Origin: Nitrospirota bacterium
GTDB taxonomy: Bacteria; Nitrospirota; Nitrospiria; 2-01-FULL-66-17
Length of the DNA: 64,000 nucleotides
Assembly (NCBI GenBank): GCA_049325335.1
Contig: JBMOMC010000001.1
Span: forward strand, 320,001 to 384,000
Direction: 5' to 3'
In this document: positions 47,815 to 59,634 of the stretch, piece after piece
How the letters are laid out: every line of letters starts with the position of its first letter
Position numbering within the stretch: position 1 is the stretch's first letter
The notes under the pieces: model-generated
The model's database searches: none
Seen by the model: only the letters and a program-made list of their open reading frames with translations
Told to the model about the DNA's origin: nothing
Position numbers and translations under genes: made by a program

Positions 47815-48366
47815 TTACAATCTGGGAAGGGTAATGCCTTGTTGGGCCTGATATTTTCCCTTCCGGTCAGCGTAGGAGGTCTCGCAGCTCTCGTCGCTTT
47901 CGAAAAACAACACTTGGGCGATCCCCTCGAAGGCGTAGATTTTTGCCGGCAACGGCGTGGTATTCGAAATTTCCAACGTGACGTACCCCTCCCACTCCGG
48001 CTCAAACGGCGTGACATTGGTGATGATGCCGCAGCGCGCGTAGGTGGATTTTCCCACACACACGGTAATCACTTTCCTCGGAATTCTGAAATATTCGACG
48101 CTGCGCCCCAATGCAAACGAATTGGGGGGGATAATACACACGTCGCCCTTAAAATCCACGAACGACTTGATGTCGAAATCCTTGGGATCAACGGTCGTAT
48201 GGTTGATGTTCGTGAAGATTTTAAAATCATCGGAAATACGCAGGTCGTACCCATACGAGGACAAACCGTATGAGATGGTTCCGGCCCGCACCTGTTTTTC
48301 CTCGAACGGAGCGATCATCCCGTATTCTTTGGCCATGGTGCGGATCCAGCGGTCGTTCTTGATCAT
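47815..48366 (-). CDS. dcd: dCTP deaminase
   Basis: [35 protein letters not shown]. Confidence 0.96.
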
Positions 48367-48455: not shown

Positions 48456-49616
48456 CTACGGCGAACGACGAAGCGGGATCAACCCGCTGGCAGCGGTTGG
48501 GGCGGGCGTCGGATCGTCACGGCAGGCGTCAGGCCCCCGTCGTTGCACCGACTCCGCCTGAACCTGCGGATAGCGGTACACCTGATCCTCGTAGTTCTTG
48601 AGGATCACTTCTTTGGAATTGATGTCGAGCACAAAATCTTGGGGCATCACCGTAACCTTGCCGCCGCCTCCCGGCGCGTCGATCACGTATCGTGGGATGG
48701 CCATGCCGGAGGTATGGCCGTGCAACGCACGGATGATGGCCAATCCAGTCTCGACCGGCGTGCGGAATTGATTCGTCCCCGTGACCAAATCAGCCTGATA
48801 CAAGTAGTACGGCTTGACCCGCGCCCTGAGCAGTTTTTGAACCAGGCGTTTCATAGTCTCCGGGTCGTCATTGACCCCCTTGAGCAATACGGTCTGGCTC
48901 CCCAAGGGAATCCCCGCGTCGGCCAACCGCCCGCACGCGGCTTCGACCTCCGGGGTGAGTTCGTCGGGATGATTAAAGTGCAAATTCATATAGAGCGGGT
49001 GGTACCGCCTCAACATCGCGCACAATTCAGGGGTGATTCTGGACGGCAGCGTGCCCGGCACCCGCGATCCGAGCCGGATAATCTCCAAATGCGGAATGGC
49101 CCGGAGCGTCGATAACACGCGCTCCAACAGATTGTCCACCAAGAGCAACGGGTCCCCGCCGGAAAAGATGATGTCTCGAATCTCCGGATGCGAACGAATA
49201 TACCCGGCCACCACGTCGATCGCTTCGGGCGTGATGGTGCCGCCCGGAGACCCCACGAACCGCTTACGCGTACAGAACCGACAATAGATGGGGCACTGAT
49301 TGGTGACGAACAAGAGCACGCGATCCGGGTACCGATGGACCAGGTGCGGCACCACCATATCGCCCTCTTCGTTGAGCGGATCGTCCTGCATGTCGAATTG
49401 CAGGTCGAGTTCCTCGGTGGTGGGGACAACCTGCAACCAAATCGGGTCCCCCGGATAACGAATCGTGCCGAGCACGTGCGGGGTGATCCGCATCGGGTAA
49501 CGGGCCACCACCTCGCGCAGACGCTCGGCGTCGCGCGACGAAAGCCCGAGGCGTTTGACGAGATCTTCAACCGCCTCGAGGCTGTCTCGTATGTCATATT
49601 TCCACTGGTCGTTCAC
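48456..49616 (-). CDS. kamA: KamA-family radical SAM/PLP enzyme (lysine 2,3-aminomutase-like)
   Basis: [57 protein letters not shown]. Confidence 0.9.
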
Positions 49617-51058
49617 GGTAACTCTCCTCGTGTGAGCGGCAACGGTCGGACCGCGCAGGGCGCGAGCACCGCGTCCCGCATGCCGTGGAGGATCTTTTTG
49701 TCCAGCCCACAGGTGGTGGCGAGCACGCCGCCCAATCGCGCCTCCTCACCGGAGACCACATAATACGGGGACAGGCGAGTGCGCCCGCCCATCGGGCGGA
49801 TGGTTCCGGTCGCTTCATCGAAAAACGACACCTCGTCCCGGCGCGCCACGTGAAACTCCTGCAACACGGACGGCGTTGCGGGGAAGGCATCCAACGCGGT
49901 CTCGATGGCGCGCCGCCAAGCCGTCGCGGGCTCGTCATGCCCCACCACCACCCCGCGCCCGCCCCACGCCAACGCGGAAAAGCCAGAGGGTTTGATCACG
50001 AACCGTCGTTCGCGCTGGGTGGCGTCGGCCAAATCGAGCCAGTGCCGGACCGGCCTCCCGCCGAGCGTGAACCCGGCGATCGCCGCATGCGGCGGCACGG
50101 GCGAGGGGTCCAGAATCCACGTGGCGGGAAACAACGCGGTCAACACCTCCGCGGTCTGAGCGCCCACATCATCGCGCCACCACCTGCGCAAAGCCGGGTG
50201 GTGCCACAAGGCCATCGCAAGTTTCTCTTCCAAAAACGCCTTGGCCGGAGGCGTGAACCGAACCGTCCCCTTTTTTGCGGCGTAGAGAAAGAGTTCGGAC
50301 TTGGGCACGTTTTTCAGGTCGAACAGCTCAAAAAACCGATACAAGACATCGATCCGCTCGGACCCGGTCGGCGCGTCGACGAACAACCCGTCTTCGTGAA
50401 AGACAACCTCCGACGGCGAGACGGCCCGAGCCCACAGGCCCGAGGCCTCCAACGCCCGGGCCATGAATCGCATTTCCGGTCGATAGTCGGCCGACTCGTC
50501 CGACACCACGATCGCAACACGCGCGTGCCGGCCGAACGCGGCGGCCAACTCGCGCGTGATCCCGTCCGCCCCGCCGACCAATGGCCCGGCCTCCGCGTAG
50601 AGTGATTGGAACGCCGCGGTCACGCCGAACCCGCCGGGCACCGCGTCCAATTCCGACGCGACCCACCCGTGGTCCGTCACGAACAAATCGGGCCGGATGA
50701 TCAACGGCACCTGGTCGCGTACCCGTCGCATCCGCCCGTACTCGACCACGGATGGCGGCTTTCCCTGGTCAAGGTAGTCCGCCACCCATCGCAACGACGG
50801 GGTTTTCAAGCTGTGAACGTAGAGTCGATTGAGCGATTGATAAAACGCCAGGAGAACCGACCCTAGGTGTTCTAAAAACGCGGCGTCATCCGGGGTCAAC
50901 CAGAACGGTTCCGCACTCACCCGCCAGGACGGCAACCCGTCGCCTTCGTGACTCGCGTATAACCCGTCGGCCCGCAATCGTTGCACGCGCCGCGCCGAGG
51001 CCGCCCCGCTGGTGAACGGGGACGCCGAGCCAACGGTTTCGCTCGCCGGGACGGTCAA
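49613..51058 (-). CDS. ATP-grasp-type ligase (glutathionylspermidine synthetase-like)
   Basis: IRPD..SELD..PGG, IDVLYRFFE, EEKLAMAL, VIKPSGFS..WGGRGV, VLQEF; 4-nt overlap with kamA; start uncertain. Confidence 0.65.
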   Translation of the reverse strand: MTVPASETVGSASPFTSGAASARRVQRLRADGLYASHEGDGLPSWRVSAEPFWLTPDDAAFLEHLGSVLLAFYQSLNRLYVHSLKTPSLRWVADYLDQGKPPSVVEYGRMRRVRDQVPLIIRPDLFVTDHGWVASELDAVPGGFGVTAAFQSLYAEAGPLVGGADGITRELAAAFGRHARVAIVVSDESADYRPEMRFMARALEASGLWARAVSPSEVVFHEDGLFVDAPTGSERIDVLYRFFELFDLKNVPKSELFLYAAKKGTVRFTPPAKAFLEEKLAMALWHHPALRRWWRDDVGAQTAEVLTALFPATWILDPSPVPPHAAIAGFTLGGRPVRHWLDLADATQRERRFVIKPSGFSALAWGGRGVVVGHDEPATAWRRAIETALDAFPATPSVLQEFHVARRDEVSFFDEATGTIRPMGGRTRLSPYYVVSGEEARLGGVLATTCGLDKKILHGMRDAVLAPCAVRPLPLTRGELP

Positions 51059-51246: not shown

Positions 51247-51555
51247 CTACGTGCGAACGGTCCGTTTTAACCGCCGTTCCACGCTCGCGATCTTGGAGTC
51301 CAGCCGACCTTTAGCGCCTTTGCGGTAATCGACGCGAATGCCCACCGAGATCCGTCGGCAATCCTTGCGCATGCGCTCATAACATCGCTTGACCACCCCG
51401 AATACCTCGTCCCACTCCCCTTCGAGCACCGTCCCCATCGGGTTCAAGCGGTACGCCACGCCGCTCTTGTCGATGATGTCCAACGAGCGCGCGACGTAGC
51501 GACCCACGCTCTCACCCTTGTCCAACGGGGACATACTGAATTCCAACAGCACCAT
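51247..51555 (-). CDS. MTH1187-family thiamine-binding protein
   Basis: EFSMSP..ESVGRYVA..YRLNPMGTVLEG..VDYR; AAGGAG RBS. Confidence 0.88.
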   Translation of the reverse strand: MVLLEFSMSPLDKGESVGRYVARSLDIIDKSGVAYRLNPMGTVLEGEWDEVFGVVKRCYERMRKDCRRISVGIRVDYRKGAKGRLDSKIASVERRLKRTVRT

Positions 51556-51641
51556 ATGCGGCATGCTCCTTATGTGGTTTTCGTTCGTCGGGGCGCACGG
51601 TCGTGCGCCCCTGCCTCCCGCGTGACAACGACGCCCGTGCG

Positions 51642-53195
51642 TCACGCGGCCAGATACCGGGTCACGTAGCCCTCGCGCGCCTCGGCGTCCCACCCCAACA
51701 ACGCACCCATCCGCTCAGCCACCAGGCGGGTGACGACGCGGTTGAACCGGTGCGGGCCGAGCGCGATCGGCAACCGTCGCCGCAGCACGTCTTCCACGGT
51801 GCGGGCCATCTCGTGTTGGACCGCAAAATCCACCTGCACCCCCACCCAGGGGAGATCCGGGTGGAGCCGCCCGCCCGTCCCGTGTCGCGCCGCCAGATCC
51901 AACAACGACCCGAACCGCGACCCGTACATCGCCGATAACGCGTCGGCCTGCGCATCCGACAACCCCAGGCTTAACGCCCGTGCGCGCCAGGCGTGCGCTT
52001 GGTCGGTCGGTACGGGATGCCCTCCCACCAGCGGCGCGGTCGCGGTCCGGCACGGGGACAAATCGGTCCGTCCGATGCGCGCGGCGACCCGGGTCACGGC
52101 GCGTTCGGCCACGGCTCGGGCGGTGGTGAATTTTCCGCCCGCGATGGCGATCACTCCGTTGGGATCTTCGGCGACGAGATCCTCCCGGCTGACCGCGGAC
52201 GCGGTCCCGCCCGATTCGTAGGCGAGTGGACGCACCCCGGCAAATTCCGCGAGGACGTCGGCGTCAGGAATCACCGAGCCGGGAAGCGCTTTGCGCGTCT
52301 CGTCCAAGAGATACCGCCGTTCTTCATCGGAACAGACGACCGCGGAGGGATCACCCGAATAGTCCACGTCGGTGGTGCCGACCAGGCTGTACCCTCGCCA
52401 CGGGATCACGAAAAACACGCGGCCGTCCCGACGCGCGGCGAGAACCAGCGCGTGCTCGCGCAGCAACGGCGGCAACACCAGGTGTGCGCCCCGCGTCATC
52501 CGAATGCGCGCCGCGGGGCCGTCGGCCATCGCGCTCACGCGGTCCAGCCACGGCCCCGCGGCGTTGACCACCACCCGTGCGAAGACCTCCCGCGTTCCCA
52601 CGCGCACGCCGATCACCCGTCCGTCCCGCCGCAGCAGTCCGTCGACCCGCGCGCCCGTCTCGATGCGCGCGCCTGCCGCCGCGGCGCAGAGCCCTACTTC
52701 GAGGCACGCCCGCGCGTCGTCCATCTGCGCGTCGAAAAACCGGGCGGCGCCCACCAGGGTCGCGTCGCGAAGCGACGGCTCCAGCCGCTTGGCCTCTGCT
52801 GCGGAGAGCATGCGATGCGGCTCGACATTGCGGTACCAGGACAGGACGTCGTACAGCGTCATCCCCAGTCGAACCATCCAAGGGGACCGCCCGGCGCCGC
52901 GATACAGCGGGAACAAAAAGGGCAACGGCCGCACCAGGTGCGGCGCGATCCGCAGCCACACCGCGCGCTCGCGCGTGCCCTCCGCCACCAGCCGAAACGC
53001 GCCTTGCTCCAGGTACCGCAGCCCGCCATGGATCAACTTGGACGTGCGGCTGCTGGTGCCGCTGGCCAAATCCCCCTGCTCGAACAACGCGACCCGCAAC
53101 CCGCGTTGGGCCGCGTCGCAGGCGACCCACGAACCCACGACCCCTCCGCCGATTACGATCACGTCATACGGTTCTTGCGGCGTTTCGCCCGGCAT
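51642..53195 (-). CDS. glpD: FAD-dependent glycerol-3-phosphate dehydrogenase
   Basis: IGGGVVG, GTSSRTSKLIHGGLRYL, VNAAGPW, GTTD, AGVRPL, GGKFTT. Confidence 0.93.
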   Translation of the reverse strand: MPGETPQEPYDVIVIGGGVVGSWVACDAAQRGLRVALFEQGDLASGTSSRTSKLIHGGLRYLEQGAFRLVAEGTRERAVWLRIAPHLVRPLPFLFPLYRGAGRSPWMVRLGMTLYDVLSWYRNVEPHRMLSAAEAKRLEPSLRDATLVGAARFFDAQMDDARACLEVGLCAAAAGARIETGARVDGLLRRDGRVIGVRVGTREVFARVVVNAAGPWLDRVSAMADGPAARIRMTRGAHLVLPPLLREHALVLAARRDGRVFFVIPWRGYSLVGTTDVDYSGDPSAVVCSDEERRYLLDETRKALPGSVIPDADVLAEFAGVRPLAYESGGTASAVSREDLVAEDPNGVIAIAGGKFTTARAVAERAVTRVAARIGRTDLSPCRTATAPLVGGHPVPTDQAHAWRARALSLGLSDAQADALSAMYGSRFGSLLDLAARHGTGGRLHPDLPWVGVQVDFAVQHEMARTVEDVLRRRLPIALGPHRFNRVVTRLVAERMGALLGWDAEAREGYVTRYLAA

Positions 53196-56586: not shown

Positions 56587-57620
56587 TCGTACCCGGAGTT
56601 GATGCGGTCGATCAATTGGCGCAACCGTCCCGAGTTTTTCCGATTGAACCACAAGTGCAGCCGGGGCAGGTGCAGCACCTCGTGTTCATTGCGCTCCTCG
56701 GGTAATGCCGCGCCCTGTTCGATGCTCCCTTGGCTCACCAGGTCTGCGAATTCCACGTTGATCGCGTCCAGCAACGCGTCCGGTACCGGCCGATTCAACC
56801 GGAGGACCAACCGGCCATGCACGTAGCGCGAGGAATGGTAATTTTTGTAAAACGCGACGATCTCCTGAACCGCGACCTCCGGACGATCCGTGATGGCAAA
56901 GAGGTGCAGGTCCTCCGCGGAAATCAACCCGCGGTTCAGTAGGTGCCGGATGTTGTACTCTCGCCACTCGGCCCAATACGACCCGCCGGGCTCGTCCACG
57001 AACACGATGGGCATGGGCGGGCTCTTGCCAGTCTGCTGCAACGTCAGCACCTCGAACCCCTCGTCCATGGTCCCCCACCCGCCGGGAAACAGGGCCAGCG
57101 CGTGGCTCTCCTTGACGAAGATCAGCTTGCGGGTGAAGAAATATTTGCACCCGATCAACTTGGGGTCGTCGTAGATAAATTCATTGGCCATTTGCTCGAA
57201 CGGCAGTTCGATGTTCACGCCGAAGCTTTGCGCGCGGCCCGCGCCTTCTTGCGCGCCTTTCATAATGCCGTCGCCCGCGCCGGTGATCACCATATACCCT
57301 TGCGCCACCATACCGCGCGCGAACGCCGCCGCCTGCCGGTACGCGGGCGCGTCTTCCTTGGTCCGCGCGGAGCCGAACACCGTGACCTTGCGGATATTTC
57401 GGTACGGGGTAAACGTCTTGAACGCGTACCGTAACTCGCGAAACGCCTTGGCGATCAGTTTGACGTCACCCCGGTCCGCCTTCTCCGTAAGCAAGCGATA
57501 CATGGTGCCCGCGAGGTCCGCGAACAAGTCCGTGTCGCCGGAGGCCTGCGCCAGTTGCGAGAATTCGGCGGCGAGGGTTTCGAGTTCCTTCACGGCCTGC
57601 GGTTTAGTCTTTTTTGCCAT
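56583..57620 (-). CDS. LOG-family nucleotide phosphoribohydrolase (long form)
   Basis: [30 protein letters not shown]. Confidence 0.9.
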
Positions 57621-58065
57621 CAGCCTCCGTAGGGTCGGGCCACGATGCGGCCAAGCGCCGCACCGCGTCCTTGAGTTCCGGAATATCCGCGGCGTTGTGT
57701 CGGATTGCCCCCAGGATGTTTTCCAGCCGCGCGCGCCGCCCCAACTCGCGATCGCGCGCCGCCAAACGATCGAACTCGGCGTATCCCGCGGAGTGGACGC
57801 GCTCCAATCGCGGCCGGGCCTCGGCCAGCGCGGCTACCACGGCGGCGGGATCCAACTCCCGCGACGGAACAAGCGCGAACGCGCCGTCCGTGAAAATCAC
57901 GACGCGCGCGTCTCCGCTTTCGACGATCGTGTCCACGGTTTTCCCACGCGCGTCCGCCCATTCGCGGATGAGGCCGGGAAAGGTCATGGCGAATTCGACC
58001 TTGGCCCGATTGGCCGCCCACTTCTCCTCGGGCGACGGCGCGGCGGCACACTCTTCGGAACTCAC
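57604..58065 (-). CDS. Hypothetical protein
   Basis: Fills the thyX-LOG gap with tight spacing; natural composition; no family recognised. Confidence 0.7.
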   Translation of the reverse strand: MSSEECAAAPSPEEKWAANRAKVEFAMTFPGLIREWADARGKTVDTIVESGDARVVIFTDGAFALVPSRELDPAAVVAALAEARPRLERVHSAGYAEFDRLAARDRELGRRARLENILGAIRHNAADIPELKDAVRRLAASWPDPTEADGKKD

Positions 58066-58071
58066 GGGATC

Positions 58072-59634
58072 CTAGACCAGGCGCTGGAATTCCGATAAAT
58101 CGAGTCGCCACACCTTCACCCCGCAATACCGTTCCCCTTCCGGGCACTTGGGCAGCGCCTCGGCCATATCGCGCAGGGTGCAGGGCGGCAGGAGGAACTT
58201 GCCGATCCGTGGATTGACCTCGCGGACCTGGATGGCTTCATCCAACGACGCGCACCAGATTTCCTCCTGCGCGTTGTAGCAGAGGCGCATGGCGTGTTTG
58301 TGGCGAAGGTTCAACAAATCGGCCGACTCGGTGAAACGCACCGCCGCGGCATTGGGCAGCAGGTACATGACGAATTCGTCGGGCGTTCCCAGCCGTCGCA
58401 ATTGTCCGATCGCGTCCCACGTCTCGGCCATCACGGCGTGGTAGTCGCGTTCCAACGCGGAGTCCTCGCGAATCAGTTCCGGCACGATGACATCGGGCGC
58501 GTCAAAGAGATGTGCCGCAAGCACGGGCCGCGACGCGGGCGTCATTCGGTGGCGCTGATCCTGCGAATCCGCGGTGTGGCTCAGTTTCTTCTTGAACGTG
58601 TACGAGGGATGAACCATGGCGCGCGTGAGTTTGCCGTGCGTGGTGAGGTTGAGCGATTCCCCCAACAACGGGTTCCGGGCCGGGTTGAGCGCCAAGTCGA
58701 TCGCGTCATCGTCGCTCATCCGCGACGCGGGCAGGCCCAGCACCTCGCGCACCGCATCGGCCAACACGTGCTCGTTCTGGGTTTTATAGTCGACGAGCTT
58801 GGAGGTGCGGCCACCAAGTTGTGCGTCGAACTCCGCGCAGAAGGCGCGGGCCGTGGCTGGATCAAGCGGCGAGCCGGCGAAAAACGCGGCCTCCGGCGTC
58901 TCGGCCTCGTCCAACGGTTCTTCCAGAATCGTCCGGTAGCGCGGATCAACGTCCAGCACCGCGTCGACCATCTTTTGCACCACCAGGCGTTGCTCGAACG
59001 GCGCGTCGAACTGCCGGCACAGGCGGTAATACCGCAGTAATGTGATGCCGCTGACCGTGTGGTACAGGTACGACAACGCGGCCACCGGCGCCACGTACCG
59101 CGCCACTTCCTGGGCCTTCTTTTTCACGTCGCGCGCAAAATTCTTGCGCGCGCGGGGAAACCGCGCGGCCCATTCGCGATCCGCGAGCGGCAGCAACCGT
59201 TCCGAAAACTCCGCGTACGCCGCCATCTGCCGCGCCACGGTCCGGCGATACACCGCCAGCGCCTCGCCCTCCAACGGCGGCACCGCCACGCTTTCCTGCT
59301 TCATGGTGACGTAGCGCTGGCTGACCTGCTCGGAGTTGTAAAACGGATGGCTGTGCAGGAACGACCAGATGAACTGCCGCGACACGTTGGAGAGCGCAAA
59401 CTGAAAGTGGGCGTGTTGCAGCGTGGTGTGGTGCCCGGCCTGATAAATGCTGCGCGCCAGCGGTTCGTACCCGTTGGTCACCTGCTCGTCGCTGACGATC
59501 CCACTGCCGGAATAACACGTCTTAGCCGTGGCGATCGCGTTACGAAACGGCTCGACAAACGCCTTGGTCAGCACCACGTCGGGTTCGGGGGACAAAAATC
59601 GAGGGAACGTGGCGGTCAACGGCATGGTCCGCAT
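58072..59634 (-). CDS. thyX: Flavin-dependent thymidylate synthase, tandem double-ThyX form
   Basis: GHHTTLQH, SQRY and ARYV in the first half; QDQRHR, LLPNA and AQEEI in the second half; about twice the length of canonical ThyX. Confidence 0.8.
   Translation of the reverse strand: MRTMPLTATFPRFLSPEPDVVLTKAFVEPFRNAIATAKTCYSGSGIVSDEQVTNGYEPLARSIYQAGHHTTLQHAHFQFALSNVSRQFIWSFLHSHPFYNSEQVSQRYVTMKQESVAVPPLEGEALAVYRRTVARQMAAYAEFSERLLPLADREWAARFPRARKNFARDVKKKAQEVARYVAPVAALSYLYHTVSGITLLRYYRLCRQFDAPFEQRLVVQKMVDAVLDVDPRYRTILEEPLDEAETPEAAFFAGSPLDPATARAFCAEFDAQLGGRTSKLVDYKTQNEHVLADAVREVLGLPASRMSDDDAIDLALNPARNPLLGESLNLTTHGKLTRAMVHPSYTFKKKLSHTADSQDQRHRMTPASRPVLAAHLFDAPDVIVPELIREDSALERDYHAVMAETWDAIGQLRRLGTPDEFVMYLLPNAAAVRFTESADLLNLRHKHAMRLCYNAQEEIWCASLDEAIQVREVNPRIGKFLLPPCTLRDMAEALPKCPEGERYCGVKVWRLDLSEFQRLV

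Follow-up and report, generated by a model that had tools for sequence, protein, structure and literature searches.

Known uses of beta-lysine and related ligases

The recognised cellular uses of beta-lysine are few, and comprise the modification of elongation factor P (EF-P), an osmolyte, fermentation, and antibiotics. The osmolyte, N-epsilon-acetyl-beta-lysine, is made by the AblA/AblB pathway, in which two genes suffice for the aminomutase and the acylation step. In the EpmA/EpmB system, according to PMC12856214, the beta-lysine comes from a KamA-family enzyme and is used by a ligase that forms amides at the expense of ATP. Here we describe a pair of overlapping genes in a window of 64,000 nucleotides from a Nitrospirota bacterium (GCA_049325335.1, contig JBMOMC010000001.1, positions 320,001 to 384,000), consisting of a KamA-family aminomutase gene and a gene for a predicted ATP-grasp ligase. 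The pair is likely to produce a beta-lysine amide that has not been described and that serves a housekeeping role.

The locus resembles EpmA/EpmB in that a KamA-family enzyme is paired with a predicted ATP-dependent ligase. However, the ligase is predicted to be an ATP-grasp enzyme rather than a paralogue of lysyl-tRNA synthetase (LysRS), its KamA falls short of the EpmB cutoff, efp does not adjoin it at any locus, and most of the ligase-bearing Verrucomicrobiota examined lack the EF-P lysine. With AblA/AblB it shares the two-gene logic of an aminomutase and an acylation, and AblA is the best-scoring equivalog of this KamA; AblB (TIGR03827), in contrast, is found in 0/5 ligase genomes, with the positive control matched, and an ATP-grasp enzyme stands in place of the GNAT acetyltransferase. 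Compared with the clostridial or AblA-type lysine 2,3-aminomutases, the pair of substrate Asp residues is kept, but the score falls below the TIGR03820 cutoff and the Zn-site cysteines are missing. In a search for the lysine-fermentation enzyme beta-lysine 5,6-aminomutase KamD (PF09043), neither the five genomes nor the positive control gave a match.

On the side of the ligase, two groups of known enzymes come close. The peptide-spermidine ligases YjfC and YgiC from Escherichia coli, together with glutathionylspermidine synthetase (GspS) (PDB 7UK6, 7UKA, and 2IOA), share 11-14% identity with it; unlike them, the ligase has no match to PF03738, an Asp in place of the Asn of the catalytic quartet, an aminomutase as partner, and no amidase domain. 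The best Foldseek matches, with a TM of about 0.6, are the eukaryote-type glutathione and homoglutathione synthetases (2HGS, 8FBZ, 3KAL, and 5OES) and the fungal Cp1B (9CJN). Homoglutathione synthetase is described in PMC12568646 as ligating a beta-amino acid. Differences from this group are the many conserved acids of the ligase family and the lack of a detectable glutamate-cysteine ligase in five ligase genomes.

A search of the literature by title and the start of the abstract, with most subscription papers and supplements outside its coverage, found no paper on the ligase-kamA pair; the operon might already be included in supplementary tables or in a survey of the gene neighbourhoods of amidoligases from 2009. 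The pairing is real, conserved, and undescribed, and its members belong to known enzyme classes.

Conservation of the gene pair

The ligase gene (49613..51058, minus strand) encodes a protein of 481 amino acids from a TTG start, which is approximately right, as close homologs span 99% of the protein. The aminomutase gene, kamA (48456..49616, minus strand), encodes 386 amino acids. The stop codon of the first and the start codon of the second share a GTGA, giving the 4-nt overlap already described in the original prediction, and a GAGGAG ribosome-binding site precedes it.

The adjacency on which that prediction was built is conserved in the phylum. Among 201 Nitrospirota genomes, 91 gave a ligase match, one of which (a weak partial match in G025, E 7e-5) was dropped; G000 denotes here the source genome of the window, other G labels the genomes compared, and L labels loci. 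Of the remaining 90 genomes, 89 also carry kamA, which occurs in 94/201, and 106/201 have neither gene. In 82 of the 89 genomes with both, kamA lies downstream of the ligase gene on the same strand and within 1 kb, and the seven genomes where the two are unlinked all belong to one family (f8). The sole ligase-only genome is 77% complete and has its ligase at a contig end, while one of the five kamA-only genomes holds the single EpmA above cutoff of the phylum. The ligase is present essentially as one locus per genome, nearly all-or-none by family, and the pairing is far above chance.

In a second sample of 201 genomes, from Verrucomicrobiota and of completeness not given, 58 genomes carry the ligase, 177 kamA, and 117 an EpmA-like protein (83 above cutoff), the latter counted from matches at E 1e-75 or better, below which a divergent EpmA could fall. 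All 58 ligase-bearing genomes have kamA, so that across both phyla 147/148 ligase genomes do; kamA is also present in 105 of the 117 with EpmA. The 26 genomes with neither ligase nor EpmA divide into 14 with kamA and 12 without it, hereafter triple-negative, which are probably losses nested among ligase-bearing relatives, judging from where they fall in the order of sampling and from their EF-P type, which they have in common with the ligase-bearing G220 and G286. Both genes are retained in genomes of 0.9 Mb (G295 and G319). Linkage is rare here: kamA is near the ligase in 1/80 Opitutales-type loci and unlinked in the others checked, the ligase follows prfB in 62/80, and carA adjoins kamA in 4/5 Verrucomicrobiota kamA loci, as read from the open reading frames (ORFs). 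Type III or flagellar export-like genes, recognised from sequence, lie directly upstream of kamA in G295 (L287:18417-L288:2468).

At metagenome loci without an adjacent kamA, the gene order is serA-ligase or ligase-larE-def. Examples of the ligase after serA are L078, L099, and L118, and of the ligase before a LarE-like gene and def L109, L112, L117, and L120.

The aminomutase

The kamA of G000 is the only one of its genome (one match in the genome search). Its product is a member of the KamA family (TIGR00238, 284 bits, cutoff 199) and, among the equivalog models, scores best with that of lysine 2,3-aminomutase AblA (TIGR03820, 433 bits), below the cutoff of 525. The scores for glutamate (385 bits, cutoff 650), arginine (342, cutoff 600), and EpmB (235, cutoff 369) are likewise all below cutoff.

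Alignment to PDB 2A5H (E 1.7e-114) bears out the residues listed in the original prediction. The CxxxCxxC cysteines of the Fe-S cluster are C108/C112/C115, the lysine binding pyridoxal phosphate (PLP) is K320 (K337 of 2A5H), and both substrate Asp positions are kept as D276 (D293) and D313 (D330). Asp293 and Asp330 presumably bind the lysine amine and are altered in glutamate aminomutase, an assumption for which a literature search gave no supporting paper. The C-terminal Cys cluster of the clostridial Zn site is absent: Asp251 occupies the position of C268, and the tail holds one Cys. In an alignment of 44 KamAs out of 45 loci, both Asp positions are present in every ligase-associated KamA, and a clostridial-type Cys tail is retained in those of G209 and G126.

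The ligase

The sequence libraries are silent on the ligase: it has 0 Pfam and 0 NCBIfam matches, no profile model, and no significant PDB match. In particular, it does not match PF03738 (GSP_synth) or PF14403 (CP_ATPgrasp_2), each of which is weakly matched by 3/108 of its homologs (best E 4e-4 and 2.5e-3, respectively). The closest named homolog, from a Nitrospirota bacterium, is 85% identical, and the family counts 5,040 matches among 8,000 candidates scored. The predicted structure shows the permuted three-domain ATP-grasp fold. Structural Z scores place YjfC and YgiC on top, with GspS close behind, and Foldseek the glutathione and homoglutathione synthetases. The protein is thus predicted, as originally proposed, to be a circularly permuted ATP-grasp enzyme of the Gsp/glutathione-synthetase type.

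The catalytic quartet R122, D124, E136, and D138 is found in 98-99/100 alignment rows. It was matched to the R-x-D...E-x-N pattern by motif spacing, not superposition, with Asp for Asn; the quartet of Cp1B is given as R139, D141, E163, and N165 in PMC12568646. Beyond the metal ligands, the acids E188, E195, E244, D247, E277, and E278 are conserved in 94-98/100 rows, in keeping with a positively charged substrate. A distant homolog with 26% identity, from a Streptomyces plasmid cluster without kamA, alters four of these six: E188, E244, E277, and E278.

A beta-lysine amide as the proposed product

The two enzymes very probably act together on a basic beta-amino acid. In the proposed mechanism, KamA would convert L-lysine to beta-lysine, whose carboxylate the ligase would phosphorylate with ATP. 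The resulting acyl phosphate would then be attacked by a small amine, the likeliest candidates being a polyamine and another molecule of beta-lysine, and the product would be a beta-lysyl-polyamine or a beta-lysine oligomer. Beta-lysine joined to such a small amine is our tentative choice of product class, somewhat short of probable. Lysine as substrate, beta-lysine as acyl donor, an amine as acceptor, and a housekeeping, polyamine-like role are all inferred.

Several observations argue for this reading. Co-occurrence is near-complete in two phyla, and 12 Verrucomicrobiota are without any of the three genes for ligase, KamA, and EpmA. Other uses of beta-lysine were not found: besides the absence of AblB, no EpmA (TIGR00462) was found in G000, where LysRS is the sole strong match, and it is absent from the ligase genomes of both Nitrospirota (0 above cutoff) and Verrucomicrobiota (0/58). 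For these two usual KamA partners, this extends from the locus to whole genomes the absence that was originally claimed. Five Opitutales genomes searched for EpmA at E 1e-20 gave one LysRS-sized match each. The top structural Z matches YjfC and YgiC are named peptide-spermidine ligases in PMC12568646, and the Streptomyces homolog, which lacks kamA in its cluster, changes four of the six conserved acids.

A route to triamines is present in 3/3 ligase genomes tested, with SpeE in G000, and an agmatine deiminase plus a deoxyhypusine-synthase-like gene in G201 and G295. None was found in the triple-negative G283, where agmatine deiminase is the sole one of the three families searched for to be present. 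The deoxyhypusine-synthase-like gene is found in 0/12 triple-negative Verrucomicrobiota; its tracking of the ligase is suggestive, not strict. A gene-set subtraction, retaining genes common to G000 and G295 and weak or absent in G102, left 122 candidates, ligase and kamA among them. The lack of a dedicated third enzyme among the candidates scanned fits a self-contained two-gene route. A PLP-enzyme gene beside a small MoaD/ThiS-like gene, the latter recognised from sequence, was seen in G295 (L271:11245-12946) and G000 (C45:135253-136774), with no counterpart found in the portion of G102 searched.

The following points weigh against a beta-lysine amide of this kind. The ligase-linked KamAs of Nitrospirota and Verrucomicrobiota form separate clades, which means that the two genes have not always moved together as a unit. 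As kamA is common in Verrucomicrobiota anyway, its presence in all 58 ligase genomes is weaker than it appears, and since related genomes are not independent, the co-occurrence counts stand for few events. Of 60 metagenome ligase loci that extend 1 kb or more downstream, 15 have no adjacent kamA, as judged from the locus only. The Z scores of the top structural families span a small range (24-27) and Foldseek puts the glutathione synthetases first, so that the acceptor cannot be read from the fold, and the role proposed for the conserved acids was assigned by motif spacing and known residue roles. SpeE also occurs in G102, which has no ligase, and the deoxyhypusine-synthase-like gene, present in 25/58 ligase-bearing Verrucomicrobiota, is found in 10 genomes without ligase as well. 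The subtraction was run against 88% of G102, and Pfam annotation covered 36 of the 122 candidates.

Taken as a ligase coupled to an aminomutase, the original prediction is supported, with an ATP-grasp fold predicted and the adjacency conserved; gene anatomy, co-occurrence, and absences are observed, and the chemistry is what we infer. That the ligase tracks the aminomutase across lineages of nitrifiers and Verrucomicrobiota, even in genomes as small as 0.9 Mb, suggests that beta-lysine has one more use, apparently a core one.

Alternative acceptors and substrates

The ligase might instead attach beta-lysine to a conserved protein other than EF-P, an RNA, or an envelope precursor, either as a beta-lysyl amide on lysine or via the amine of beta-lysine onto a protein carboxylate. 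This is rather unlikely in our estimate, and would be in line with the single locus per genome and its family-wise distribution, its retention in the 0.9-Mb genomes, its housekeeping neighbours (prfB in the Opitutales-type loci, serA or larE-def elsewhere), and the fact that no third pathway gene was found.

Alternatively, beta-lysine could act through an amine as the acceptor of a small acid or peptide, in the way that beta-alanine does in homoglutathione, yielding for instance a thiol that serves a neighbouring glutaredoxin. The glutathione and homoglutathione synthetases do come first in Foldseek, a CxxC glutaredoxin-like ORF stands beside the pair in 44/48 kamA-bearing metagenome loci, and, on chemical reasoning, the two amines of beta-lysine have the spacing of putrescine. 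However, the glutaredoxin is absent in this window and in the Opitutales loci, and glutamate-cysteine ligase was found in none of the five ligase genomes (PF04107 and PF04262 0/5 each, controls matched; PF08886 not searched). Moreover, R450, which we take to be the acceptor-carboxylate-binding residue of glutathione synthetase, appears as T448 in the ligase by motif mapping only. Beta-lysine is unlikely to be the acceptor.

A third alternative is that the ligase replaces EpmA and beta-lysylates Lys34 of EF-P, at least in Nitrospirota. Ligase and EpmA never co-occur: the ligase is in none of the 117 EpmA-bearing Verrucomicrobiota, nor in the lone Nitrospirota genome with EpmA. This exclusion probably tracks clades. 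In the Nitrospirota, where 20 of 29 located EF-Ps were compared, G000 has one EF-P, with the loop PGKGG, and the same loop is found in 8/8 other ligase-bearing genomes, yet also in 5/12 without ligase. In the Verrucomicrobiota, 19 of the 58 ligase genomes were examined and 18 gave an EF-P, of which 17 lack the tip lysine (PGN in 13, PPR in 2, QGR in 1, and PPN in 1). Only G209, with ligase, kamA, and no EpmA, has a PGK loop (PGKG). The PPR loop is common to the ligase-bearing G220 and G286 and to all 11 triple-negative genomes examined (of 12). In addition, efp was found in none of 160 ligase loci, compared with 3/6 EpmA loci. EF-P, which had been listed among the possible acceptors, is therefore rejected as a general target, given the missing tip lysine in 17/18 Verrucomicrobiota and the absence of efp from the loci; as a target in Nitrospirota it is improbable.

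A broader version, in which the ATP-grasp enzyme replaced EpmA in translation, acting on EF-P in Nitrospirota and on another conserved target where the Verrucomicrobiota EF-P lost its lysine, is just as improbable. If true, it would constitute a new route of EF-P modification, and it would explain why EpmA is fully excluded and why genomes of 0.9 Mb have kept the pair. EF-Ps of unknown modification type account for nearly half the genomes of PMC11388002, and the pair would bear on them if its target lies in translation.

EF-P tips vary widely in Verrucomicrobiota (L219-L248: PGN, PPR, QGR, PPN, and PGK), with a second divergent copy in G244. Those of Nitrospirota (L405-L424 and L360) include PGKGG without EpmA or ligase (5 genomes), MGRGG (4), and MQQR (3).

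Finally, that the substrate of the aminomutase is a different amino acid, such as arginine or ornithine, or that the two are merely co-located housekeeping genes, would agree with a KamA below every substrate-specific cutoff, with the unlinked genes of 7/89 Nitrospirota and nearly all Opitutales-type loci, and with a distant ligase homolog that occurs without kamA, but is decidedly doubtful given the best score for the lysine equivalog, the two Asp residues kept throughout the ligase-associated KamAs, and the near-constant presence of kamA in ligase genomes of two phyla.

Neighbouring genes and the Streptomyces cluster

Downstream of kamA and on the same strand, as had been noted, lies dcd, encoding dCTP deaminase (47815..48366, minus strand, TIGR02274 above cutoff), which starts 65-89 nt past the kamA stop depending on the choice of start codon. 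As a conserved partner, however, it does not hold: it adjoins kamA in 3/30 genome loci (with short flanks) and 5/48 kamA-bearing metagenome loci, and is a local neighbour rather than a part of the pair. Upstream of the ligase is a gene for an MTH1187-family thiamine-binding protein (51247..51558, minus strand, TIGR00106 above cutoff). It is found near the ligase in 2/30 genome loci, those of the source genome and of one of the same genus, and in 0/80 metagenome ligase loci, and is no conserved part of the pair either. A glpD-like gene (51642-53195, minus strand) follows further upstream.

Elsewhere in the window, a 520-amino-acid protein (58072-59634, minus strand) contains two Thy1 (ThyX) stretches and is roughly double the normal size. 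Between this double ThyX gene and a LOG/SLOG-family gene lies an ORF of 153 amino acids without Pfam match (57604-58065, minus strand).

The Streptomyces cluster that holds the distant ligase homolog (L425:7297-15664, plasmid NZ_CP109170.1) also encodes a B12-type radical SAM protein, an arginine-deiminase-family protein, an extra ValS, a hydrolase, and a methyltransferase, and is possibly a pathway for an inhibitor of valyl-tRNA synthetase, with the valS copy conferring self-resistance.
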